A stretch of DNA of 32,000 nucleotides from Candidatus Saccharimonadota bacterium (GCA_030429145.1 JAUIDC010000001.1:750001-782000); one strand, 5' to 3'; counted from the first letter of the stretch, positions 9,864 to 32,000 are shown. Notes: generated from the sequence alone by a model not told the origin. Translations and numbers: made by a program.

Positions 9864-10277
9864 TTATTGTCTAGACGTCGCTTTTTGTCATGCAATAATA
9901 CAGATAACGACAATGAGAACCAGTGTAAGTCAGAATATTGGCTGTTGGTAGTACTCCCATAGGCCTGCCCAGGTATTAGTTTCCATGTATTGTGGGATTC
10001 GTGCTATGATGTCGAGACAAAATCCGACAATAATGAAATATATACCGAGATATAGCCCCTGTAGCGCTCCTCTAGCTACTTTTTTCGAACGGAAGTATAA
10101 TGCTGCCATAAATCGAGTAATGATGACAGCTGCCGCAGCACTTACTACTCGTACTCGCATAGGCGGGTTTGCCATGTCGATACTCTCAAATCCAGCTACA
10201 AGACCAATAATGATCCCTATAGCAAGAGTGATAATGTAGGTGAGTAGTGCAAAACCGATAGCTCTTAATGGTTTCAT
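9864..10277 (-). CDS. Hypothetical integral membrane protein
   Basis: The start is likely MKPLRAIGF at 10277, just after the trpS stop. TGA 9930..9932 is read through, adding a C-terminal TM segment (..PIF[G]LTLVLIVVICIIA[G]QKATSRQ). TAA at 9864..9866. Length 137 aa. Confidence 0.55.
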
Positions 10278-10317
10278 GATATGTCTATTATGTATAAAGC
10301 AATGTTTATAGGTAGAA

Positions 10318-11289
10318 TCATACTTTTTGGAAGACTTCATCTACCTTCTTTTGCGCAATAACTGCTGCTTTTGGTGTCGACTTTTTCAATATACTGCTAA
10401 TGTCCTCATCAGTCAACTCGTTATATCTCTCTTGGATTGGTTTGAGAAATGCTACTATCCTTTCGTGTAGTTCCTCTTTGAGTGATCCATATCCACGTCC
10501 TCCATTTTCAAAATCAGCTCTTATCTTTTTGTCTTCTTCCTCATTGAGAAAGAGTTTCATGATCTGATAGAGTTGAGATTCATCGGGATTCTTTGGATCA
10601 TCGATCCCCTTCTCGTCTGTTGGGATCACTTTTACCTTTTTGAGTACTGTCTTTTCATCGTCCATAAGACCAATGTAGTTATTATATGATTTAGACATTT
10701 TGCGTCAGTCAATACCTGGTACGACTGCGACAGTCTCCTCTATCTTTGGCTCTGGTAGTTTAAATGTCTCACCAAATGTCTTGTTGAACTTCTCTGCTAT
10801 GTCACGTGCGTATTCCACATGCTGTTTCTGGTCTTTTCCGACGGGCACGACATCAGCATCATACAGCAATATGTCTGCAGCCATCAGGATAGGATAGGTG
10901 AAGACACCGACAGATATTTCACCTGCTTTTCCCTTGTTGATAGAGTCTTTATATGCATGCATGCGTTCAGCGGTTCCCATGTTAGTCAAACACTGCAATA
11001 CCCATGTGAGCTGTGCATGTGCAGGGATCATAGCCTGATTATAAATGAGTGTTTTTTCAGGATCTAGTCCACATGCAATGTACAGTTTTAGTGCATTGAT
11101 GCTGTATTGTCTTACCTTGTCTGCATCGTGGAGTGCTGTCAAAGAGTGCATATTTGCGAGAAAGAGAAACACATCATACTCTCCGGAGTTTTGATACTGT
11201 ATCATTTGTGGTATTTGCATCCCGAAATAGTTTCCGATATGCATGTGTTCACCTGTTGGTTTCAATCCTGTCAATAATCTTTTTGTCAT
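10318..11289 (-). CDS. trpS: Tryptophan--tRNA ligase
   Basis: Track ORFs 10705..11289 and 10318..10698 are joined by TGA 10705..10707, giving VPGID[G]RKMSKSYNN (KMSKS). The HIGH-type motif GEHMHIGNY is present. Length 323 aa. Confidence 0.9.
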
Positions 11290-11311
11290 CTTCTTTTCAA
11301 AATACTAAATA

Positions 11312-12271
11312 TTATCCTAAGTTTGCTTTGATTACTCTCATAGCATTTTCATGAAAGAACTTTTCCGTCGTGATGCTACCAAGCTTGGCGTTCATTCTTT
11401 CATAGAGCAGATGGATTCCTTTTACAGACTCCATACCGGCTACAGTTTTTTCTTTCGGTATCCCATGCCAATCACTTCCAAGTGCTACGTAGTCATCGCC
11501 GATACGATTTACAATGTATCCGACCTGCTCGACATATTGATCTATAGTAACAATCGGATCAGTAGATATGAAAGGCTTATACAAACTCAGACCAATCACT
11601 CCTCCGTTTTTAGGAAAGAGATCGATGATCTCATCGGGGATGTTTCTCGAATGAGCATGGATAGCATGGATATTGCTATGTGAGTTTAGTATCGGTTTCG
11701 TAGAGCTCTGCAGGAGTTCTTTCATCCCTTGTCGACTCATATGAGCGGTGTCTATGATCATTCACCAGGAGTTCATAGCTTCCATGAGTTCAAACCCCAG
11801 TGGTGTAAGGCCTTTTTCTGCAGAGCCATGTGCTCAACTGAGTGTCGTGTCATTGTTCCATGTTCGGCCAAAAGACCTCACTCCTTTCTCATACCAGTTT
11901 TTTACTATGTCGACACTATCTATGTTGTCATGTCATTCGATATGTATCAGTACTTTTAGTCATTCTTTTGTGAGGTCGTCACTACTCTTCACCACACTTA
12001 ACTTGCTTCACCATGACAATGCTCCGTCTATTCCTTTCTCTATCAAATTTTCATCAAACGATATCTTTCTTCCATGGACATCTTTCATGTCTCATTCACA
12101 TACATATGGTCGTATCGCATTTACTACCAACGCATAATCATCCTTATAGTCGTCATATGTGCCTACATTGTAATCAGGGCTTATCTCCTTTCATTTCTCA
12201 CTATCAAAAAACAGTACCGGCTCATTGCCGTAGGTCATAATCAGATCTTGATGAATATCGACTGCTTTCAT
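11312..12271 (-). CDS. Membrane dipeptidase, peptidase family M19
   Basis: Track ORF 11312..11761 extends upstream through 7 TGA to ATG 12271. Motifs are VDIHQD, LIHIE[G]HDNID, GVRSFGRTWNNDTTLS[G]AHG, GLTPLGFELMEAMNSW[G]MIIDTAHMS and SHSNIHAIHAHSRNIPDE. Confidence 0.8.
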
Positions 12272-12369
12272 ACGCACAGCTTACTAAATTCCAATCATTT
12301 TTCTATTCCAAATTGTAATTTTTTTATAAAAGACTAATATATCCTTGTTTTATTGATTTTCCCCTCTAG

Positions 12370-12957
12370 ATGACACAAGTTGAGAAAAAAGAGCGAGAGA
12401 GGTTCGTAGAGGTCTTTCTGGCTAAGAATAAAGAGCTGAATTTGTCTGCCATTCGTGACGCAGATGGGGTTTTTGTGAAACATGTAAAAGATGCTTTAGA
12501 GCTCAATAAGATACGGACATTTGAAAGCTGACAAGAAGTTATTGATGTCGGTACGGGTGGATGAATTCCCTTGCTCCCTCTAGCTATGAGTAACCCAGAA
12601 GTCCACTTTGTCGGATTGGATAGTGTGAAAAAGAAGACGATAGCAATCATGGACATGGCCGAGAACTTGTGAATAAAAAATGTCGAAGTTGTATGGTCTC
12701 GTGCTGAACAACATAAGGTAAAATACGACGTTTTGACAGCCCGTGCTATGGCCTATATAGACAATCTGATGACTCGGTGCTACCAGCTCGTGAAAAAATG
12801 AGGCTATTTTATCCTCTATAAGATGCGATCAGAGGAAGAAGAAATGGCTATCGATGCTGTATGTAATAGGTATAAACTAGCGCTCGAGAAGCAACATATG
12901 TATAAACTGTCAGATGATGACATCCAAAGAGTAATCTATATTCTAAAGAAATTATAA
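12370..12957 (+). CDS. rsmG: 16S rRNA (guanine527-N7)-methyltransferase RsmG (GidB)
   Basis: Absent from the track because of 4 in-frame TGA. The hand translation of 195 aa gives NLSAIRD..VKHVKDAL and the SAM motif VIDVGTGG[G]IPLLPLA, with that TGA at 12562..12564. It also gives VLTARAMA. The antisense track ORF 12366..12656 is rejected. Confidence 0.85.
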
Positions 12958-22606: not shown

Positions 22607-24079
22607 TTACTCGTTCAACAATCTTCCCAAATCTACCTCCTCTATCTCATCCAGTTTGCTTACCCATGCATCGTCATGGCTAACCATAATGACAGCACCT
22701 TTGTAGTTGTTGATGGCTTCTGCGATGACAGGAAGGTGGCGGAAATTGATATGATTTGTTGGTTCATCGAGGATAAGAAGATGTGGTTTTTGGATAGCAA
22801 ATCTTGCGTAACAAAGTAGTCCTTTTTGGCCTTCAGAAAGTGATTCGATAGGTTGTTTGAGGAGATCTCCCGTAAGGAGGAACTGGGCAGCGGTTTTGTA
22901 GACCTCTTGGTCGGTCACTTCATTTGACATCTCGTGTAGTGCATCCCATACGGTCATTTGCATATCAAGTGCATTGAAATCTTGGCTATAGTAGCCAATT
23001 CTCACTTCATCATGAATGGTTGCGTCACCACTATGTGCATTGATCAATCTTTTCAAAAGTGTTGATTTCCCGATCCCATTTGGACCCATAAGCTGGTATC
23101 TCATCCCCTTTTTAAGCTCTAGTTCGAGCTTTTTAGAGACGCGTTCATGCTCTTTGTTCATGAGCTCAACGCTATGGATGGTCACGATAGGCCCAATATA
23201 ATTTTCAAACTCTATCGTAAATGGCGTAATCGTCTTATCATCCCTTCTTACTTCTACCTTGTTCTCCTCTGCTTCAGCTACTTCATCTCTCATCTTACTA
23301 GCAAGTTTACGCATTTTACCTCCTTTCTGAGCAAAGAAGTTGATCTTTTCTTTAGCGTCGACGATTTTCTTTTCCATACGTGCATTGAGGGATTTTGCTT
23401 TCTCCAGCTGATGAGCAATCTCTTCTACTACATTATAGTAGTCCCCTCGGTATTGCTCTACCTGGTGAGACTGGACATTGAGATATAAGACGCCATCGGT
23501 AAACATATTGAGAAAGTCTGCATCATGGCTAATCACCACGACAGTTTTATCATACCCAAGCAGAAATCCGATCAGGTGATTGATACCATCGGTATCGAGG
23601 TTGTTTGTCGGCTCATCGAGCAAAAGAATATCTGGCTTTTGAATCAACGCATAAGCGAGCAGAATGCGAGCCTGCTGTCCTCCTGAGAGTTCTTTGAGCT
23701 CCTTATCGAGAGGCATATTGAAATTGACTGCTTCAAACGCTTCAGCAATCTTTTTGTCGAGCTGATAGTCTTTTTCTGCAAAAGCTGTCGCAAAGTACTC
23801 TCTAATAGTCATATGCATCATATCTCTTGGTATTACCTGCTTAGCGATAGCAATACTTTTCCCCTGACCGATATTGATCTTTCCTGACTGTGGCTTTAAC
23901 TCCCCAGTAATCATTTTAAAAATAGTAGACTTCCCTGCTCCATTTTGTCCCATGATCGTAATCTTCGTGTTTTCACGTAACGAAAAATTAGCCTCAACAA
24001 GAATGGGCTTCTTCCCATCATTATAAGCAAAAGATACTGTATCAAAGCTTAGGATAACTGGATTCTGACTGTTCGACAT
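22607..24079 (-). CDS. ABC-F family ATPase with two ABC domains and no TM domain
   Basis: Two Walker A motifs (GQNGAGKST, GPNGIGKST), two signature motifs (LSGGQQ, LSEGQK) and two Walker B motifs (LLLDEPTN, LILDEPTN). Length 490 aa, TAA stop, no in-frame TGA. Confidence 0.85.
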   Translation of the reverse strand: MSNSQNPVILSFDTVSFAYNDGKKPILVEANFSLRENTKITIMGQNGAGKSTIFKMITGELKPQSGKINIGQGKSIAIAKQVIPRDMMHMTIREYFATAFAEKDYQLDKKIAEAFEAVNFNMPLDKELKELSGGQQARILLAYALIQKPDILLLDEPTNNLDTDGINHLIGFLLGYDKTVVVISHDADFLNMFTDGVLYLNVQSHQVEQYRGDYYNVVEEIAHQLEKAKSLNARMEKKIVDAKEKINFFAQKGGKMRKLASKMRDEVAEAEENKVEVRRDDKTITPFTIEFENYIGPIVTIHSVELMNKEHERVSKKLELELKKGMRYQLMGPNGIGKSTLLKRLINAHSGDATIHDEVRIGYYSQDFNALDMQMTVWDALHEMSNEVTDQEVYKTAAQFLLTGDLLKQPIESLSEGQKGLLCYARFAIQKPHLLILDEPTNHINFRHLPVIAEAINNYKGAVIMVSHDDAWVSKLDEIEEVDLGRLLNE

Positions 24080-24274
24080 AACAAAAAAAGAAAAAATATA
24101 ATAACATCTAACCCGCGAAAGGATAGTTATTTACGTTATTTTTTCAATGAGAAGCTAGGGTTGTTCACCTATGGCTTTTTGATTTACTCCTAGCCCGCCT
24201 TCCCATAAGACCAAGAAGTTAGTGAAAGAGATGGCCGAGATGATTGGAACTGGCTGGGAGGGTGAGAATAATTT

Positions 24275-25366
24275 TTATATGTCAATTTCAAACTCTTCTT
24301 TCCTAACTTCTTGGAGATCTATTTCTGACATTATTTCTTCTTTTAATAGGGCTGATTCTTCGGGATTATAGATGTCTAAGAATCTTATAAGTTTATCTAC
24401 TTCTAAATTTTTATAGTGTGGTCTAACCAGATTAATTAATGTTTCGGGTACCCAATCACTATAGTCTTTTATCCAAATGATTTGGGAATTACTTATTGCA
24501 GCATCGACAATTCTATTTACTTGATCTATAGAAAATTCACCATACTTCTCTAGTTTTATTAATGTCTTCCTTGTTCTTGCGAATGAATAACTTTCTTCTA
24601 AGTCTTGAATGTGCTTTTCTTTGAAATATTCTTCATTTAATGTTATGTCTGGGAACGTCCCAGCAAAAAAATCATTGAGTGCGTTGTAAAAAACAATTTT
24701 TCCTTTTTTAGGTAAGAAAGAGTATGATTCGCTTTCTTTCTCTAAAAAGTTCATGAGCTTTTTTTCATCTAAAGGGCAGGAGAAGTCTCCATCAATTGAA
24801 ACTAAATGTATGTTAGAATCTGTATCATTTTTGGCATATTCAAGTAGTGATTCCCAAATTATGGCATCTCAATATGAATTGTTTTTGCCTGGTGGATTAC
24901 CTAGATCAAATCTTTTTTTTGCTTTTTCTCGCAACTCTTCAGTTAATGGTATTTGTGTTGCTTTAGAGAATATCTTTTTGAGCAATATATCTGCTTTCAA
25001 CTTTTCCTGGGCGGCATCAGTGGAGACTTTTTCTATTAATTGATTTTTTAGGTGAGAGAATTCTCTAAATGTCTCATGTAACATTGCTTTTTCCTCATAA
25101 GAATCTGAAATTCTGGGTAATTTAAGATCTATATGCTGTTCTTTTAGTTTTTTTATAGCATCTTTGATTTTATTTTCTCTGTTTCTATAAAACTCATTAA
25201 TTATTTGTTCTGGTAAGAGAATGGTTAATTGATCAGTGTCAATTAATCAAAGTATATTTTCTAGTTTTTCTAAATCATTATCGCTAAAATGATAAAAACT
25301 TAAGTATACATTAGTGTCAATGCATAAGACTACTTTAGTATTTTTTTCTTCAGTTTTTTTGCTCAT
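24275..25366 (-). CDS. PIN-like domain protein (DUF4935-type) with an uncharacterised C-terminal half
   Basis: Track ORFs 24869..25084 and 24275..24754 share a frame with ATG 25366. The codon count between anchors was checked. There are 2 TGA (ENIL[G]LID, NNSY[G]DAIIW). Motifs are VVLCIDTNVY, GNPPGK..SY[G]DAIIWESLL and IHLVSIDGDF. Length 363 aa. The locus is more AT-rich than its flanks. Confidence 0.55.
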
Positions 25367-25383
25367 TGCCTTGATTCTTTTAT

Positions 25384-25407
25384 AAAAACCCCACATCTTT
25401 GCGGGGT
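25384..25407 (-). terminator. Intrinsic terminator after trxA
   Basis: The minus strand reads accccgcaaagatgtggggt followed by TTTTTA. Confidence 0.55.
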
Positions 25408-25420
25408 CAAATAGTTGTAT

Positions 25421-25822
25421 TTAGGCAGCCATAGGCATATCTGTATCTGTGTTCTCTGACTCAGGCATTTCAACTGTCTTTGATTCAGTCGCGTTTATGT
25501 CTGCGGTATGTTGCTGAATGATTTCTTCTACTCTAACCGGTGGTACTACTCCAGTGAAGTCATCAACTTTTTCTCCATTTTTGAAGAAGATGACTCTTGG
25601 GATGCTGTTTACTTGGTATTGTACAGCTAGCGGATAGTTATCCTGCTCATCTACGTTTACCTTTACGAGTTCTACTTTGTCTGCGTGTTTTTTTGCGAGA
25701 TCCTCGAGTACAGGCTTGAGCATGCGACATGGTCCACACCACTCTGCCCAAAAATCTACCATAACGAGTTTATTTGAAGTAGACGTTAGTTCATTGAATT
25801 TGTCTGCACCTGTGATATCCAT
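25421..25822 (-). CDS. trxA: Thioredoxin with an acidic C-terminal extension of about 25 aa
   Basis: WCGPC active site. The likely start is MDITGADKF at 25822. TAA stop. Confidence 0.85.
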   Translation of the reverse strand: MDITGADKFNELTSTSNKLVMVDFWAEWCGPCRMLKPVLEDLAKKHADKVELVKVNVDEQDNYPLAVQYQVNSIPRVIFFKNGEKVDDFTGVVPPVRVEEIIQQHTADINATESKTVEMPESENTDTDMPMAA

Positions 25823-25853
25823 GGTTATTGTGATTATTGCTAAATTGCTATGA

Positions 25854-26075
25854 TTAGTATGCTTCAGCAACTGCGCCGTAGCAGACATTTTTGACGATGT
25901 TTTTGAGAGCTTGCATGACAGTGTAGCTGAACTCTACGTAGCCTCTGACTGCTACTACTTCGAACTCTTCGAGATCATTTCGTCCTGGCTTCATGCTGAT
26001 AAGAAACTTATGTGAGTTTATTTCTAGTACGACATCATATTTCCCTTCATCTTTCTCTTCAAAGATAGCTTTCAT
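25854..26075 (-). CDS. Hypothetical small protein, 73 aa
   Basis: Start at MKAIFEEKDEG, preceded by aaggaaacaac. TAA stop. It lies 31 nt upstream of trxA. Confidence 0.45.
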   Translation of the reverse strand: MKAIFEEKDEGKYDVVLEINSHKFLISMKPGRNDLEEFEVVAVRGYVEFSYTVMQALKNIVKNVCYGAVAEAY

Positions 26076-26244
26076 GTTGTTTCCTTGAATTGTATGCTTA
26101 GTGAGAGTTTCTTGTCCAAATAACGTTGCTTGATACATTTACCTTCTACCATGGCTTACAGGATAAAACAGATGCATTACTTTTGGTTGATTGTTTTTGT
26201 TATTACATTTTCCTGAAGTAATTACAACAGACAAATCGTTTTAA

Positions 26245-26284
26245 TTTTTTGGGAAAGTTCCCCTTGATTTTTTTGGAAGGTTCG
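26245..26284 (+). promoter_or_regulatory. Tandem direct repeats containing GGAA-NN-TTC half-palindromes
   Basis: TTTTTTGGGAAAGTTCC at 26245..26261 and TTTTTTTGGAAGGTTCG at 26268..26284, 23 nt apart start to start. They sit in the divergent intergenic region 42 nt upstream of the AbiEi-like gene. Confidence 0.4.
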
Positions 26285-26325
26285 TTATTTTTCGTTTAAG
26301 GATTTTTATAGGTTCTCTCTGCAGT

Positions 26326-27099
26326 ATGAGGAAAAGCTATTTCAACATTGTTGTGGAAAAACTATCAAAAAGTGTCGACAAGGTCGTGAGTATTGACTTT
26401 GTTAAAAAAGCACTCAAAAACTGTATGGATGATGCCTATTCGGACACAAAAGCCTATAAGTTACTACACCAATTAAAAAATAAATGATACGTTGTATCAC
26501 TCAGAAAAGATTTGCTTTATGTCACTCTCCCCGACCGTGATGTTGATCTTGCTCAGGTTATGCAGAGACACTATTGGTCGATACTCAGAAACCATTGTCA
26601 GACATATGCAAATAAATGACGAGCGATTGCATGACTGAAGGCGCTTGAACTTCATATGATGAACTACGATGCTCCTGAATTCATCGATATTTTAGACGAC
26701 AAAAAACAAGCGCAGGAGGTCATTGTCGGAGACAAAAAGGTGCGTTATAAGACGATGACGGTAGATGGAAAATCATTTCTAAAAAAAATAAACCCCTACA
26801 TGACGAGGTTATATGTAGGAGGATATAGTTTCAGCGTGACGAATATTATCCTTTCTATATTGGAAACACTCTATAGCCTAGATGGTAGTGATGATACCTA
26901 TCGTTATGAGCTTATAAAGAAAGCGGTGAAGAAGTATCAGAAAAGCATTGATCGAGAGTGTGTTGTTTTTGTGCTGCGCCAAGGAAAGTATCATACGAGC
27001 ATCAATAGACTCCATAAGCTTGTGATGGGGTTGGATGAGAAACTTGCTGAGGAGATAAAGGAGATTATTAAGAAACATAGTTACGATATTGTGGTATAA
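26326..27099 (+). CDS. AbiEi-like antitoxin / wHTH transcriptional regulator; no AbiEii partner is present
   Basis: Track ORF 26656..27099 extends upstream through 3 TGA to ATG 26326 (110 codons counted). The N-terminal pattern KAYKLLHQLKNK[G]YVVSLRKDLLYV and ..[G]RAIA[G]LKALELH resembles the AbiEi wHTH region. The assignment is from memory. Length 257 aa. Confidence 0.45.
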
Positions 27100-27191
27100 A
27101 GAAAAAGTCCCGCCGAAAACAGCGGAACCCCAATAAATCCTATCATCATGAAAAACAGAATGATACTCTTTGTTTTTTGTTTTGCAACCCT

Positions 27192-27620
27192 TTAATAGAA
27201 TTGTAGAGGGATAATTGCTTGAGAAGTGCGAATACGTTGAGGGTGTAATCGCTCTTGTTTCCAAGGGATTTCTCTTGCGTTAATAATCACGCAGTGTATG
27301 TCCCAGAGCTTTTTCCCCTGTTTGTTGATCAAATAGTCTAAGTGGTCTTTTTGTGCATCGGATAAGAATACATACAGTGTGTCCGTAGAACACACAGAGT
27401 CGCAATCTCGTAGTTGGTAGGTCTTGAGTACAAGTGGATTTTCGATGGTTTTCGAAATAATAAACGGGAATATCTTTGTCGAATCCGTAATATCTCCTTG
27501 TAGCTCTACCATCTCTATGGGCTTGCCTCCTCGTCCTGTGGGTTGGCAACTGCTCATAGCAAGCATGCTGCATAGTAGTATCACTATGGCACACAATAGC
27601 ATGATTCGTCTTTTTTGCAT
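27192..27620 (-). CDS. Putative lipoprotein, 142 aa
   Basis: Signal peptide MQKRRIMLLCAIVILLCSMLAMSSC with a lipobox-like MSSC. TAA stop. Confidence 0.55.
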   Translation of the reverse strand: MQKRRIMLLCAIVILLCSMLAMSSCQPTGRGGKPIEMVELQGDITDSTKIFPFIISKTIENPLVLKTYQLRDCDSVCSTDTLYVFLSDAQKDHLDYLINKQGKKLWDIHCVIINAREIPWKQERLHPQRIRTSQAIIPLQFY

Positions 27621-27679
27621 GACTTTTCTTTTTGTTTAGGAAAGGATATATGTTTTAGTGGCAAAAGTCAATCTATAAG

Positions 27680-27711
27680 AAAAGCCCTGACTGATATTCA
27701 GTCAAGGCTTT
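27680..27711 (-). terminator. Intrinsic terminator
   Basis: Stem agccctgactga/tcagtcaaggct with one mismatch. A T-rich tail follows on the minus strand, downstream of 27739..27945. Confidence 0.55.
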
Positions 27712-27738
27712 ATGGTCTACCTGTTACAATAATGCTTT

Positions 27739-27945
27739 TTATGCAGCTATTTGCACACCGTCGTTACAGCTCCATACTATCGTATGTGTCCCTATTTGCT
27801 TTTTAAATGCGGGGACATATTCGCAAGGAGTATAGTCTATGCCTAGTATGCCTTGTTGAGCCATAAATTCATTGAGTGCCGCTTGTTGTTCCTCTTTACT
27901 GGGAATCAGTCTTTTTTCGGATTTGTGTTTTCTTTTGTATTTCAT
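27739..27945 (-). CDS. Hypothetical small protein, 68 aa
   Basis: ATG to TAA ORF with its own terminator. No family recognised. Confidence 0.4.
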   Translation of the reverse strand: MKYKRKHKSEKRLIPSKEEQQAALNEFMAQQGILGIDYTPCEYVPAFKKQIGTHTIVWSCNDGVQIAA

Positions 27946-27967
27946 GTGTAGTTCTTTTACTGAGTTG

Positions 27968-28359
27968 TTAGTGAAAAGTAATAGGATATTGAGTAGTAAT
28001 ACCTACCCAGTGTGGCCTTGCAGGATCTATTGTACCTTGTTTTGTACGAGATTTGAAGGCACATACTATTTCTCGGTTGAGTTGGTAGTTATTCTTTTGT
28101 AGGAGGTTGAGTAGCCTTGCTGCACCGGTTTCATCAAGCTTTATAATGGCTGTGTCTGTCTCCGCCTCTTCTGGCCGGAGGGCGCGAGTTTGAATAAGTG
28201 CATAGGCAATGCCACAGCCAAACTCTTGTTGATCAGAGTGACAGGAGTCTAATCCTATGAACACGCCGTTTATTTTTTCGTTATTAACGGATACGTGTTT
28301 TTGACTGTCGTCATTGCAGCTACTACAAGCAATGTACAAAAGAGTGATAATACTTGTTA
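27968..28359 (-). pseudogene. 3' portion of a lipoprotein gene interrupted by the transposon insertion
   Basis: The frame is open from the transposon junction (..LTSIITLLYIACSSCNDD..) but has no plausible start codon. The missing ATG AGA TAC T lies on the far side of the element at 31931..31940. Confidence 0.75.
28352..28359 (+). repeat. Target-site duplication, left copy (ACTTGTTA)
   Basis: Identical 8-mer directly abutting the outer end of each terminal inverted repeat. The other copy is at 31923..31930. Confidence 0.8.
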
Positions 28360-28386
28360 GATAAATCTCCCTTAAAGAAAGTATAA
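28360..28386 (+). repeat. Left terminal inverted repeat (GATAAATCTCCCTTAAAGAAAGTATAA)
   Basis: Its reverse complement matches 31896..31922 at 25 of 27 positions. The outermost 17 nt are perfect. Confidence 0.8.
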
Positions 28387-28406
28387 ATTGGAAGTATATA
28401 TTGCGA

Positions 28407-28892
28407 CTATATATTAAATTTCTTTAAAACCTTATCAAACTCTTCAGAGTTATCTTGAGTACAAATCTGAGACAAGTAATCTGTAGTTTGCTTTCTGGCA
28501 ATATTATTTTTGATAATGAAATTATGTAGCTCTATATATTTTTGATGAATCAGTTTTCCTACACAAATGCACTGTCCTGTAGATTCTAATGTATGCAATT
28601 CATCGAGTTCCATATGGTCTCGTGGATGATTATTTCATGAAAAATAAATATAATTATCTTGAAACACTACTAGGGCATTATCAATATCACTCGGCGATAT
28701 AAGAAAAAAATTCTTATGATAACCTTTTCATGTGGTTGGCACTAAAAAACTCACATAAATTCTATGAGATATAGATGATTCTTCAAAAATTTTATATACT
28801 ATCTTATACTTATCTTTAAATCTATCTGTTCACGCTTCTTGTGAATTATGATGTCTGAAAATTTCTTTAATTTTTATTTCACGTTTTGGCAT
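28407..28892 (-). CDS. Unknown 161-aa protein; candidate toxin partner of the Panacea-domain gene
   Basis: ATG 28892 lies 2 nt after the TAA of the upstream gene (..GAA TAA AC ATG..). There are 3 in-frame TGA. Track ORF 28407..28613 is its C-terminal third. No family recognised. Confidence 0.55.
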
Positions 28893-28894
28893 GT

Positions 28895-29440
28895 TTATTC
28901 TGCATCAAAATTTAATTCTTCTCTGAAGTGTTCAGTTCAACCCAAAGTTGCTTGAAAAGCCTCCATCGGTTTTGTTCCATAAGCAATCTTAGTTAATCCG
29001 GTTCAACGAAATCCAGATAAATTTGTTAAATATTCATCTATAATTTGAATTTCATCATCTGTTAATTCTGTAGGTTTTATTTCTTCACCTTGTTCCGATA
29101 ACTGATAATAAATGATTTCGTCACCAGTTGAACCAGTAATTATATCATGAGATACTATTCCCTCTTGTTCTAAATTCTCTATATCTTCTATTATTTTTCT
29201 ATCATAAGGTCAATAGTAATATCTTATGTACTTATACTCAGATAGTCTCTGCTTATCATTGTTTTTATAGTACATCAATTCTATTAGGTATAAGAGCTTA
29301 ACAATTTCTGTAATATTACACTTTACTCTATTCTTGAGTATATGCATTATAAGCTCTTTAGACTTATTCATTAAGTAATAAGGAAATGATTTAAATCAGT
29401 AATTTGATACATACTTGGCTGTCGTAATGCAATAGAACAT
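28895..29440 (-). CDS. Panacea / SocA-like (DUF4065) antitoxin-domain protein
   Basis: Absent from the track because of 3-4 TGA. The hand translation gives ..ITEIVKLLYLIELMYYKNNDKQRLSEYKYIRYY[G]PYDRKIIEDIENLEQEGIV.., matching the KL.KLLY...Y.YGP core of the family (from memory). An alternative start is ATG 29371. TAA at 28895..28897. Confidence 0.55.
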
Positions 29441-29516
29441 AGCTCTTTTTATTGAAAAATGTATATAATAGTAAAAACTCTATAGCAAAAAATATTTAAT
29501 TATTTATATTAACTAT

Positions 29517-29664
29517 GCCAAGCTTTTATATTTCCCTTTTTCTTTTTCGAAAGAAATCCCATTTCAATTACAAAGAAAGGCGGTATGTAATCTGCTCTTT
29601 TCTTACCGTAATTGGAGGGATTGAGTATAAAAGCTTGGCGGCTGATTGCATGCCGTCTTTTTTT
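29517..29664 (+). promoter_or_regulatory. Structured leader: a 14-bp long-range inverted repeat plus an intrinsic terminator (attenuator or riboswitch-like)
   Basis: GCCAAGCTTTTATA at 29517..29530 pairs with TATAAAAGCTTGGC at 29626..29639. The terminator ggcggc-tgattgcat-gccgtc plus T7 at 29637..29664 shares 3 nt with the right arm. It lies 22 nt upstream of ATG 29686. Confidence 0.4.
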
Positions 29665-29685
29665 ATACTCTATTCCAAATCAATC

Positions 29686-30156
29686 ATGAATGAACTTATT
29701 ATACCACATCGGTTATTGATTACTGTGTTTCTCATTTTAGTCTTGGCAGTTATTTGAATATTAAATCCTCATAGATTTAAATGACTTCGCATAATGAGAA
29801 GAAATACTCAAGATGAACAAAATGAAAGAGAAAAAAATCTGTCTACATCACAATTAAAATGCATTAATAGATTCTCCTGGTGGGCATTTGTTTTTCCATG
29901 AATCTACCTATTACGAGCAAGATGTTATCAGAGCTTTCTGCCATTATTTATTCTAAGTTATATTCCAATTGTGGGATTATTCGTTAGATTTTACATATCA
30001 TTGAATATAGTGAAACGAGCATATATTAACTCAGAAAGAGACTTAGAATGATTCTTAAAGGTAAAGGGTAAGTTTGTACAAGACTTGATATGACGATTAT
30101 TCTTGGTTGTGTTATTCTTTATTATATCTTCGATAGTTAACAATAACCCATATTAA
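29686..30156 (+). CDS. Small membrane protein (DUF2628-like?)
   Basis: MNELIIPHRLLITVFLILVLAVI[G].. with 5 in-frame TGA. The motif FSWWAFVFP[G]IYLL is present. TAA at 30154..30156. The track start at 29515 would place a T7 terminator inside the CDS, so I prefer the later start. Confidence 0.5.
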
Positions 30157-30163
30157 TCTTTCC

Positions 30164-30997
30164 CTATACCTTATTTAGTAATAGCCCAAATAAATTATCT
30201 TCTTTTCTGTTATTATATCTCCAAACAAATTCATCTACATAAGCCTGCATCCATTGTTTGGAGACTCGATGATATATTCATCTAATACCTCTTTTGAGTA
30301 AGCTCCAAAATCACTCAAGAGTATTTGTGTATACATCTCCTACAGCTCGCTCCCATCTGCTATGACAGACAGTATCATGCTGATAGCAAAGGGATAGATT
30401 TCTATATCACCTTCGTTCATCTGAACATATCCTACTATGCTTTTCTACGTTTGCAAAAATAAAGGTTGTAAGGAACTCTTCTGTAGCGCTTTTCCCTATA
30501 GTTGCCTTTATCTTTCCTGTATCGCGATTAAGAATTCAAACAACCATAGTTTTATTTCTTTGCCAACCATTATTCCATCATCATTTAACTCTTCCTCCCA
30601 CATAAGTCTCATCGACTTCGCTAATTCATTTGAACATTGGGAGATCTTCCTTCATGAGTTTACGTATTTGTTGCATCATTCTCCAAGCCGTCTTATAGGT
30701 GACTCTTATCTGTCTCGCTAGTTGATTTGAAGACAATCACTTCTTACTATTTGCTATGAAATACATAGCAAGAAACCATTTATGCAATGGTGTAGAAGAC
30801 CTATAGAAGATGGTTCCACATTTCAATGTTTGCTGATGATTACAGCTGAATTTTCTACACTGATACTTTCTACTGTGAGATAATCTATACATAGTTGTTC
30901 CACATTTTTGACATATTACTTTTGATTTTATTTTTGCAAGATGTTCATAACATTCTTCATCGGTTCTAAATTTCTCGATGAACTCTATTAAATTCAT
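30164..30997 (-). CDS. IS1595-family DDE transposase with an N-terminal zinc ribbon
   Basis: Track ORF 30737..31015 carries the Zn ribbon CQKCG..C..C. It extends through 8 TGA to TAG 30164..30166. Motifs are ISEVDETYVGG, ICSDERR[G]Y, HSRW, YTNTLE[G]FWSLLKRGIR[G]IYH and YVDEFVWRYNNR. Length 277 aa. Confidence 0.85.
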
Positions 30998-31143
30998 TCT
31001 GCAATTATTAAACAATAAAAGTCAATAATTGTAATGCAAAACAATGGCTATAGCAAGCCATTATCATACACGTGTACGTGTATTTTTTAATTTTGTAAAG
31101 ATGCTTTTTTGCATCTATAAGAATAAAAATATATAATGTTAGT

Positions 31144-31488
31144 ATGAAAGAAGTTAGGATAAGAGACCCATTATATGGCATTTCTATTCAGGTATTCAGC
31201 GATATCTCTTTTGCAGATTGGAGAGAATCTTTTTGAATTTGAAAAGGGAAATCCGAAGTAAGTGTTGGGTGATTTACCTGGTATAATAATGAAACTTGAG
31301 GTGCACTCATATGGCTCAATAGAAAAGCATGACCAGAAATATTAATACACGAACTGTGGCATGCAATACATGGGGCATTAAAAGATAGATGATTCACTCC
31401 TAATAGCATTGCTGGGGAAGAGACGTATGCTTATCTTTTTCAATATTTTTATAGAAAGATGACTCAGAAAGGTTTATTTCCCAAATAA
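31144..31488 (+). CDS. Small HExxH-motif protein, 114 aa; putative Zn-metallopeptidase-like (ImmA/IrrE- or SprT-like?)
   Basis: Absent from the track. There are 6 TGA in 114 codons. The motif is LIHELWHAIH followed by GEETYAYLF. TAA at 31486..31488. Confidence 0.5.
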
Positions 31489-31512
31489 AAAAACACCGTT
31501 GTAGACGGTGTT
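31487..31512 (-). terminator. Intrinsic terminator for the minus-strand small gene
   Basis: Stem aacaccgt/acggtgtt with loop tgtag. A T-run follows only on the minus strand. Confidence 0.6.
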
Positions 31513-31541
31513 CAAGATCAATATTAGCAAAAGAAAAGATA

Positions 31542-31688
31542 TTATTTTCTCTTGCGATTGGTGCCTGACTTTTTTTCTCCATCAGAGGTGTAAGGATTAC
31601 TTCTTGCGTGTCCTTTCACCTTGGTACCGTCAGCTTTAGTATAACCAGGTATTCTGTTATACTTTTGACCTTTGTCTGTTTTAGCCAT
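31542..31688 (-). CDS. Small basic protein, 48 aa
   Basis: MAKTDKGQKYNRIPGYTKADGTKVKGHARSNPYTSDGEKKSGTNRKRK. The longer start in the track adds implausible sequence. TAA stop followed by a terminator. Confidence 0.35.
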   Translation of the reverse strand: MAKTDKGQKYNRIPGYTKADGTKVKGHARSNPYTSDGEKKSGTNRKRK

Positions 31689-31895
31689 AAGGTATGTGGT
31701 TAAGAAATAAAAGAGTGTTTTTTTGTGGGTATGTTCTTTGCGAACATGTTGTGTAATCTGCATAATAAGCTTATTGCTGATTACACCCTGACTATATAGA
31801 ACGTACGTTTCTTTTTCAAGAGATTTTCTATATATTGTGTTGCCGAACGTTTTTAGACACAATATATGTGTTGACAAAAAACATATACTTATACC

Positions 31896-31922
31896 TTATA
31901 CTTCTTTTAAGGGAGATTTATC
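31896..31922 (+). repeat. Right terminal inverted repeat (TTATACTTCTTTTAAGGGAGATTTATC)
   Basis: Matches the reverse complement of 28360..28386 at 25 of 27 positions. Confidence 0.8.
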
Positions 31923-31930
31923 ACTTGTTA
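31923..31930 (+). repeat. Target-site duplication, right copy (ACTTGTTA)
   Basis: Identical to 28352..28359. Confidence 0.8.
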
Positions 31931-31940
31931 AGTATCTCAT
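31923..31940 (-). pseudogene. 5' stub (ATG AGA TAC TTA ACA AGT) of the interrupted lipoprotein gene
   Basis: The minus strand reads atgagatacTTAACAAGT. When joined to 28351 downward it gives MRYLTSIITLLYIACSSC.., a complete lipoprotein signal peptide in the same frame. Confidence 0.7.
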
Positions 31941-32000
31941 ATTCGTGGTTTTTGTTTATAAAAATATTATAGTTCTCTATGAGTGTAAGTCAACCCTTGT

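Follow-up and report, generated by a model that had tools for sequence, protein, structure and literature searches.

The window analysed in this study is the whole 32,000-nucleotide (nt) stretch GCA_030429145.1 JAUIDC010000001.1:750001-782000 from a Candidatus Saccharimonadota bacterium, and all positions are counted from its first letter. Towards its 3' end, a small lipoprotein gene is interrupted by an element that we read as a passenger-carrying transposon of the IS1595 family of insertion sequences (IS). When TGA was taken as a sense codon, six open reading frames (ORFs) were found inside the element, namely the transposase gene and the five additional ORFs that an earlier note on this DNA had claimed. 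The features that define the element are the following.

27968..28351, minus strand: 3' part of the disrupted small lipoprotein gene, frame still open
28352..28359: left copy of the target-site duplication, ACTTGTTA, encoding Leu-Thr-Ser, codons 4-6 of the disrupted gene (minus strand)
28360-31922: whole transposon, 3,563 bp (~3.56 kb), between the two copies of ACTTGTTA
28360..28402, plus strand: left terminal inverted repeat, with the 27-nt core GATAAATCTCCCTTAAAGAAAGTATAA and AAGTATA at nt 20 and 33
30164..30997, minus strand: IS1595-family transposase gene, 277 amino acids (aa), with zinc (Zn) ribbon, helix-turn-helix and DDE regions and eight TGA codons read as Gly
31880..31922, minus strand: right terminal inverted repeat, located by the repeat finder and by recomputation
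31923..31930: right copy of the target-site duplication, ACTTGTTA, identical to the left 8-mer
31931..31993, minus strand: 5' end of the disrupted lipoprotein gene and a promoter-like site, with ATG at 31940-31938, the codons Met-Arg-Tyr, and TTGACT-16-TATAAT at 31993-31966

The boundaries were determined by reading the sequence, with a repeat finder and by recomputation. The left junction consists of ACTTGTTA followed by GATAAATCTCCCTTAAAGAAAGTATAA, and the right junction of TTATACTTCTTTTAAGGGAGATTTATC followed by ACTTGTTA. The terminal 27-mers are identical at 25 of 27 positions and their outer 17 positions are perfect, and the inverted-repeat pairing reaches 43 nt at 84% (36/43). Both the inverted repeats and the identical 8-bp direct repeats had been described in the earlier note, and both were reproduced. 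The terminal 17-mer has only two sites in the window when up to three mismatches are tolerated, both of them element ends, compared with an expectation of 0.13. None of 100 shuffled windows contained two or more. The chance of matching 8-bp flanks at the composition of the window is approximately 3e-5 by arithmetic. AAGTATA lies at nt 20 and 33 counted from either terminus, an arrangement that would fit the layout expected of subterminal transposase-binding repeats.

Removal of 28360-31930 in silico (the element and one copy of the duplication) rejoins a minus-strand ORF with its ATG at 31940. The restored ORF reads MRYLTSIITLLYIACSSCND... / MRYLTSIITLLYIACSSCNDD... and has a signal peptide with a lipobox. 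Its promoter, an 11/12 sigma-70-like match, lies immediately outside the right end. An exhaustive profile search using the 3' fragment found a distant lipoprotein homologue, P0129, which aligns with the reconstructed protein from Met1 to Met1 (MRYLTSI-ITLLYIACSSCND against MKNITSLLIALTIVAILSCND; BLASTP E=7e-16). Because of this alignment, the residues beyond the right end and those within the duplication belong to one ancestral gene. With the element in place, the start codon of the target gene gives only MRYLTSDKSPLKEV followed by a stop. The insertion, at codons 4-6, splits the promoter and the first three codons from the remainder of the gene. At the level of sequence, the gene reconstruction demonstrates a true insertion, and the claim that the locus is not an ancestral one stands. 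The split gene is undecayed: the 123-codon 3' part is open, and the promoter and start are intact. Together with the perfect duplication and the intact transposase, this supports the claim that the insertion may be recent.

The transposase contains the motifs EVDETY, SDERRGY and NTLEGFW. It scored 186.5 bits against the NCBIfam model NF033547 (IS1595 family transposase; cut-off 75) and 115.2 bits against the Pfam model PF12762 (DDE_Tnp_IS1595; cut-off 27). Both curated thresholds were passed, which bears out the proposed IS1595-type transposase. Every position conserved in at least 95% of 78 homologues is kept. D129, D193 and E228 occupy columns that are invariant across the 78 homologues, so the DDE triad is intact. 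The ISfinder subgroups of the family are ISPna2, ISH4, IS1016, IS1595, ISSod11, ISNwi1 and ISNha5, and a Zn-ribbon domain is expected in every one of them except IS1016. Five Cys, each conserved in 77-78 of the 78 homologues, are all present. A Pfam scan of the element genes found no second transposase or recombinase. As family traits, members have one transposase gene, whose product combines an N-terminal Zn finger with a C-terminal DDE domain, and they duplicate 8 bp of the target (PMC8101967). Members with passenger genes are called "transporter ISs" in the relevant passage of PMC8496243, which cites Siguier, Gagnevin and Chandler (2009). Within what these two sources cover, the family-typical duplication and the cargo-carrying members invoked in the earlier note are thus both documented.

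In-frame TGA codons number 26 across five element genes, which points to genetic code 25, in which TGA encodes Gly. There are eight in the transposase, six in a 114-codon ORF, three, four and five in three other cargo ORFs, and none in a 48-aa ORF; the counts claimed for the transposase, the 114-codon gene and the 48-aa ORF were all correct on recounting. In the 78-homologue alignment, seven of the eight transposase TGA codons fall in columns with a Gly majority, four of which are invariant Gly. In host GroEL, residue 118 is encoded by TGA; its counterpart in solved chaperonins is the Gly of a conserved motif, RGI. Because TGA sits at conserved Gly positions in the transposase and in GroEL, host and element both use code 25. 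This is shown directly for these two proteins, and in the cargo genes TGA presumably has the same meaning. The nearest relatives of the transposase also use code 25, in agreement with the proposed code-25 element. It can be soundly inferred that the element could not be expressed in a standard-code host. Code 25 is of the Gracilibacteria/Absconditabacteria type. The G+C content of the element is 31.1%, compared with 39.1% in the remainder of the window. Because the element lies 8 points below its host, it probably came from another recoded lineage.

The public gene calls for this code-25 locus are code-4 translations with Trp at TGA, or code-11 fragments (P0001, P0002, P0130-P0133). Because the public calls are products of these codes, stored identities to the recoded relatives are too low. 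The nearest database matches, all metagenomic proteins, are 52-53% identical to the transposase as stored (code 4) and 55-56% identical once retranslated. They are L121 (Logan SRR24524665_67) and L123 (ENA ERZ27245845), whose transposase TGA codons also sit at conserved Gly. They were the sole recoded members among the best 120 matches.

The element under study, L121 and L123 have the end motif G(G/A)TAA(T/A)TCTCCCTTAAA in common, with the core TCTCCCTTAAA. The L121 element is complete (9881-12795, 2,915 bp), with the left end GGTAATTCTCCCTTAAAC, the 8-bp duplication AAATGTAA and a degenerate right end. Its four orphan passenger ORFs are unrelated to the cargo described here, and its G+C content is 35%, against 40% in its flanks. 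L123 has the shared end motif as well, and its transposase gene converges with a DUF2628-like ORF. A standard-code element of 1.9 kb was found at 599-2502 of L126 (ENA ERZ6863577 c_000001100698). Its transposase (P0004) is 44% identical, its ends are GGTAACTATCCC, and its perfect 8-bp duplication is TAGATAAA. An asparaginase gene is split by this element, whose passengers are a Peptidase_M78 (ImmA/IrrE-type) gene and a gene for a 125-aa membrane protein. The same element is also present in L127. Variable cargo between conserved ends is typical of this transposase clade.

The occurrence of the element elsewhere was also searched. The window is 100% identical in DNA to the 94.6-kb Logan contig ERR3428547_4705. 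A 936,577-bp NCBI contig holds exact code-4 translations of three cargo genes (the panA gene, the 161-aa ORF and the membrane-protein gene described below) and a truncated lipoprotein call. Clustering at 90% identity puts the cargo proteins in groups of one or two. The element thus appears to be present at the same site in two assemblies, seemingly of one organism, and to be absent from the rest of the collections. The 37 kb around it contain no second copy. The transposase protein had 0 matches in IMG/VR, and the whole element had no DNA match in the plasmid collection. The earlier note had proposed the terminal 17-mer as a probe for further copies. In a 596-Gb genome collection it gave at least 120 chance matches in unrelated taxa, none of which extended to the 27-mer. 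These matches are uninformative because a 17-mer is too short for 596 Gb. Neither occupation of several sites nor an empty site was seen, which weakens the claim of current activity and not that of family membership.

Between the ends, the cargo genes and regulatory features are arranged as follows.

28407..28892, minus strand: putative toxin partner (PanT-like), 161 aa, three TGA, 2 nt downstream of panA
28895..29440, minus strand: Panacea-domain (SocA/PanA) antitoxin gene, 181 aa, four TGA
29505-29510, plus strand: promoter-like -10 box TATATT, 6 nt upstream of the leader
29517..29670, plus strand: structured leader RNA, ~150 nt long, ~20 nt upstream of the membrane-protein gene, a three-way junction with a closing stem of 17-18 bp
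29572-29592 with 29644-29664: alternative helix H2 (21/19 bp), taking in the terminator 3' arm and U run
29623-29633 with 29660-29670: alternative helix H3 (11 bp)
29658-29664, plus strand: T run (T7) of the leader terminator-like hairpin GGCGGC-N9-GCCGTC
29686..30156, plus strand: DUF2628-like four-helix membrane protein, 156 aa, five TGA, convergent with the transposase gene
31066..31083, plus strand: perfect 18-nt palindrome ATACACGTGTACGTGTAT followed by a T run, terminator-like, in the divergent intergenic region between the transposase and HExxH genes
31144..31488, plus strand: HELWH (HExxH) protein, 114 aa, six TGA
31491..31513: terminator-like hairpin flanked on either side by T/A runs, where the HExxH and 48-aa genes converge
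31542..31688, minus strand: lysine-rich basic ORF, 48 aa, no TGA

The leader had been claimed as structured, and the claim proved real, with a strong fold and the same structure in L121. The plus strand folds at -53.9 kcal/mol (z = -5.9) and the minus strand at -43.6 kcal/mol (z = -3.1). A counterpart lies within the L121 element at 11789-11948 (minus strand). The 3' part of the leader is 86% identical to it over 107 nt, and an 84-nt stretch is 89% identical to L121 11789-11871; for the transposase genes, the figure is 67% over 619 nt. The leader is thus the most conserved DNA common to the two elements. This conservation is not coding, because one-nucleotide indels occur. Each copy independently folds into the same three-way junction (-54.3 kcal/mol in L121), with a -10 box 6 nt ahead of the first stem in both; in L121 this box is part of TTGAAA-16-TATACT. 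The closing stem is 100% paired in both copies, between which one pair changes from A-U to G-C and another from C-G to U-G. The wobble pair fits the plus strand only. Three leader pairs are changed on both sides between the copies, that is, in a compensatory manner. H2 and H3 are uninterrupted and conserved in L121, and a helix of at least 17 bp arose in 2 of 500 shuffles. In both elements, the GGCGGC...GCCGTC hairpin and T7 are followed by ~20 nt to the start of a membrane-protein gene, and the two membrane proteins are unrelated.

No Rfam family reached its gathering threshold for the leader. Three leader-RNA patterns had 0 matches in IMG/VR, and the leader had no DNA match in the phage collection. 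Two identities were tried and rejected. RAGATH-9 gave 27 bits against a threshold of 75.2, on the opposite strand, and was not reproduced in L121. A guide RNA was considered as well; complementarity between the leader and the terminal repeat or target is only 7-9 nt, AT-rich, and not common to both elements. From its sequence and predicted fold, a new regulatory RNA is plausible. Our further proposal, that the leader is a riboswitch or attenuator of a new cis-regulatory RNA class and forms a core module of the code-25 IS1595 lineage, is tentative, and we think it doubtful that all of it will hold.

The membrane protein downstream of the leader matched PF10947 marginally (23.8 bits; cut-off 23). 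A public call of 213 aa (29515-30156) extends this ORF over the RNA leader. Downstream of the membrane-protein gene, the plus strand has no terminator-like site before the ATACACGTGTACGTGTAT palindrome, which lies a short way upstream of the transposase start; therefore, transcripts reading through the leader would be antisense to the transposase gene over its full length. The pattern is inconsistent between elements, as L121 has a comparable antisense terminator within its transposase gene.

The 181-aa protein matched PF13274 with 39.9 bits (cut-off 25.7, E=9.4e-10) and, in PADLOC, PDC-M19A and a DarG-like model. The 161-aa ORF is co-oriented with panA and begins 2 nt past its stop, in a two-gene operon layout. 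In known PanAT pairs, the antitoxin gene more often comes first (Kurata et al. 2022, PMC8832971). For the 161-aa ORF, no homologue was found, no Pfam match appeared even at E=10, and there was no PHROG or PDB match; a weak PADLOC match to MkoB was obtained (E=3.8e-4). An AF2 model of its code-4 version had a predicted local distance difference test (pLDDT) score of 37.7 and was unusable. A PLD-nuclease identity was rejected, since it relied on one weak PADLOC match and no PLD-family Pfam match was seen at E=10. We infer that panA and the 161-aa ORF may form a type II toxin-antitoxin pair, which would stabilise the element or defend against phage.

The HELWH protein matched phrog_1365, a family of unknown function, over its full length (E=1.4e-7), which places it by sequence in a phage-associated family. 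It had no Pfam or PDB match and no protein match in the phage collection. For the 48-aa ORF, the sole match was weak (phrog_21154, E=0.035), and it is considered a putative gene supported by its open frame and by nothing beyond it. The HExxH, DUF2628-like, 48-aa and reconstructed lipoprotein sequences, searched as one concatenated query, showed no close relatives outside the source.

Two observations concern the DNA around the left end. An outward promoter-like site, TTGATA-16-TAATAT at 28411-28438 (minus strand), lies at the end of the putative toxin gene and faces the truncated lipoprotein ORF via the left end. Because no terminator was detected downstream of the toxin candidate, transcription may still reach the 3' fragment of the target gene. 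The adjoining host DNA (24000-28350) has a G+C content of 33-39%, compared with 40-45% in the upstream region. At least two small ORFs in it are lipoprotein-like, one of them at 27192-27620 (minus strand) with MQKRRIMLLCAIVILLCSMLAMSSC, and it may be a variable surface-protein region.

We consider it very likely that the element is a passenger-carrying IS1595 "transporter IS" unit transposon in a code-25 host of the candidate-phyla-radiation type. Several observations weigh against this. The Zn-ribbon model PF12760 gave 23.6 bits, slightly under its cut-off of 25.4 (E=5e-5). The element is single copy, and the 86-aa code-11 N-terminal fragment of its transposase occurs on Logan contig ERR3428547_4705 only. 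No empty site was observed in the databases searched: the intact 133-aa lipoprotein is absent from the protein collection, and a 24-mer of flank and duplication had 0 matches in JGI metagenomes. The terminal repeat had 0 matches elsewhere in JGI metagenomes (as a 26-mer) or in IMG/VR. Among the passengers, the putative toxin has neither a homologue nor a usable model, so that the toxin-antitoxin reading comes from the Panacea domain and the gene order alone. The leader is known from two sequences only, and its covariation count was reached by 53 of 500 shuffles. Part of this would also be expected if a true IS1595 insertion had become a fixed, immobile single-copy relic, which the host may keep for its toxin-antitoxin or membrane cargo. 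On that reading, the description of the insertion in the earlier note as recent and possibly still mobile would not hold. The single copy in the 94.6-kb contig and the protein collection, the failure to find an empty site or a second copy, the end mismatches (2 in 27 nt, 7 in 43 nt) and the degenerate right end of the related L121 element all fit such a relic. Against a relic, the two duplication copies are identical, the transposase ORF is unbroken and keeps all family-conserved residues, and the split lipoprotein gene is undecayed, all of which points to a young insertion; the 8-point difference in G+C has not yet been erased. We regard a relic as possible and on the unlikely side.

It is improbable that the mobile unit comprises only the transposase and the ends, with the other ORFs as non-functional filler or trapped remnants of mobile elements such as phages. 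It is true that family matches are weak or lacking for the toxin candidate, the HExxH protein and the 48-aa ORF, that the HExxH protein matches a phage protein family, and that the cargo is wholly different among related elements. However, ORFs of 114-181 codons are very unlikely by chance when a stop is expected at ~6% per codon (arithmetic for 31% G+C and TAA/TAG only). PanA and DUF2628 are above their Pfam cut-offs, promoter-like and terminator-like sites are sensibly placed, and the leader RNA is the DNA most conserved with the L121 element. An ancestral gene cluster with fortuitous or regulatory repeats, which the lack of an observed empty site would allow, is effectively refuted: the 25/27 inverted repeat with an 8-bp direct repeat is far beyond chance, removal of the element restores a gene aligned from Met1 with its homologue, the G+C content is unlike that of the host, and related transposases elsewhere lie between ends with the same motif and 8-bp duplications. 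Equally hard to credit is an assembly artefact in which a mobile element was chimerically joined to a chromosomal contig. The source is metagenomic and repeats often produce misjoins, but both junctions carry the same 8 bp and jointly restore one gene, and identical element proteins, accompanied by the truncated lipoprotein call, are present in two assemblies. Overall, the element is a well-preserved, basically ordinary recoded IS1595 transporter IS in an unusual host.

In the proposed mechanism, the transposase would bind the imperfect terminal repeats of ~43 bp that carry the AAGTATA subterminal repeats, and DDE-type strand transfer across an 8-bp staggered target cut would follow. The leader with its terminator would give conditional read-through control of the DUF2628-like gene. 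If this is true, leader gating of the convergent membrane-protein gene might also determine how much antisense transcription crosses the transposase gene.

The locus provides a cleanly bounded example of a code-25 transposon with its pre-insertion gene reconstructed. Its nearest relatives are recoded and those next in similarity use the standard code, which is one small, concrete observation in favour of the mobile gene pool being partitioned by codon reassignment. Putative toxin-antitoxin genes and small orphan genes are evidently carried by IS1595 elements in tiny symbiotic genomes. In practice, the public annotation of the locus is wrong in several ways, with code-11 fragments, code-4 tryptophans and one ORF drawn over the RNA leader. 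Follow-up would be most worthwhile for the recoded clade and the conserved leader RNA; the leader, a candidate new structured RNA that is directly testable, is the most interesting part.

Compared with its recoded relatives, the element shares with L121 the order of transposase gene, convergent membrane-protein gene and leader RNA, and with L123 a DUF2628-like ORF in the equivalent relative position. The passengers of L121 and L123 are otherwise unrelated to those described here, except for the leader RNA and possibly the DUF2628-like ORF. Like IS1595 transporter ISs, it has a lone transposase (Zn ribbon at the N-terminus, DDE_Tnp_IS1595 domain at the C-terminus), terminal inverted repeats starting with G, an 8-bp duplication, and passengers between the ends. 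It differs from them in being written in genetic code 25, with eight TGA codons as Gly in the transposase, and in its cargo, which has no resistance or metabolic genes but consists of a PanA-type pair, a membrane protein with a putative control leader, and small orphans. Its length of 3.56 kb exceeds that of both complete related elements (1.9 and 2.9 kb). As in PanAT systems, a Panacea (DUF4065/SocA) protein is encoded directly upstream of a second small ORF in one operon on a mobile element; unlike in those systems, the partner matches no known PanT family nor any other protein, and the pair is known from sequence. The leader resembles terminator-type riboswitches and attenuators in having a promoter, a multi-helix domain of ~130 nt, a hairpin with U7, ~20 nt to the start codon, and long mutually exclusive helices that include the 3' strand of the terminator. 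It differs from terminator-type riboswitches in its closing stem of 17-18 bp, which is far above typical P1 stems, and in being a leader with two examples and no Rfam family or known ligand.

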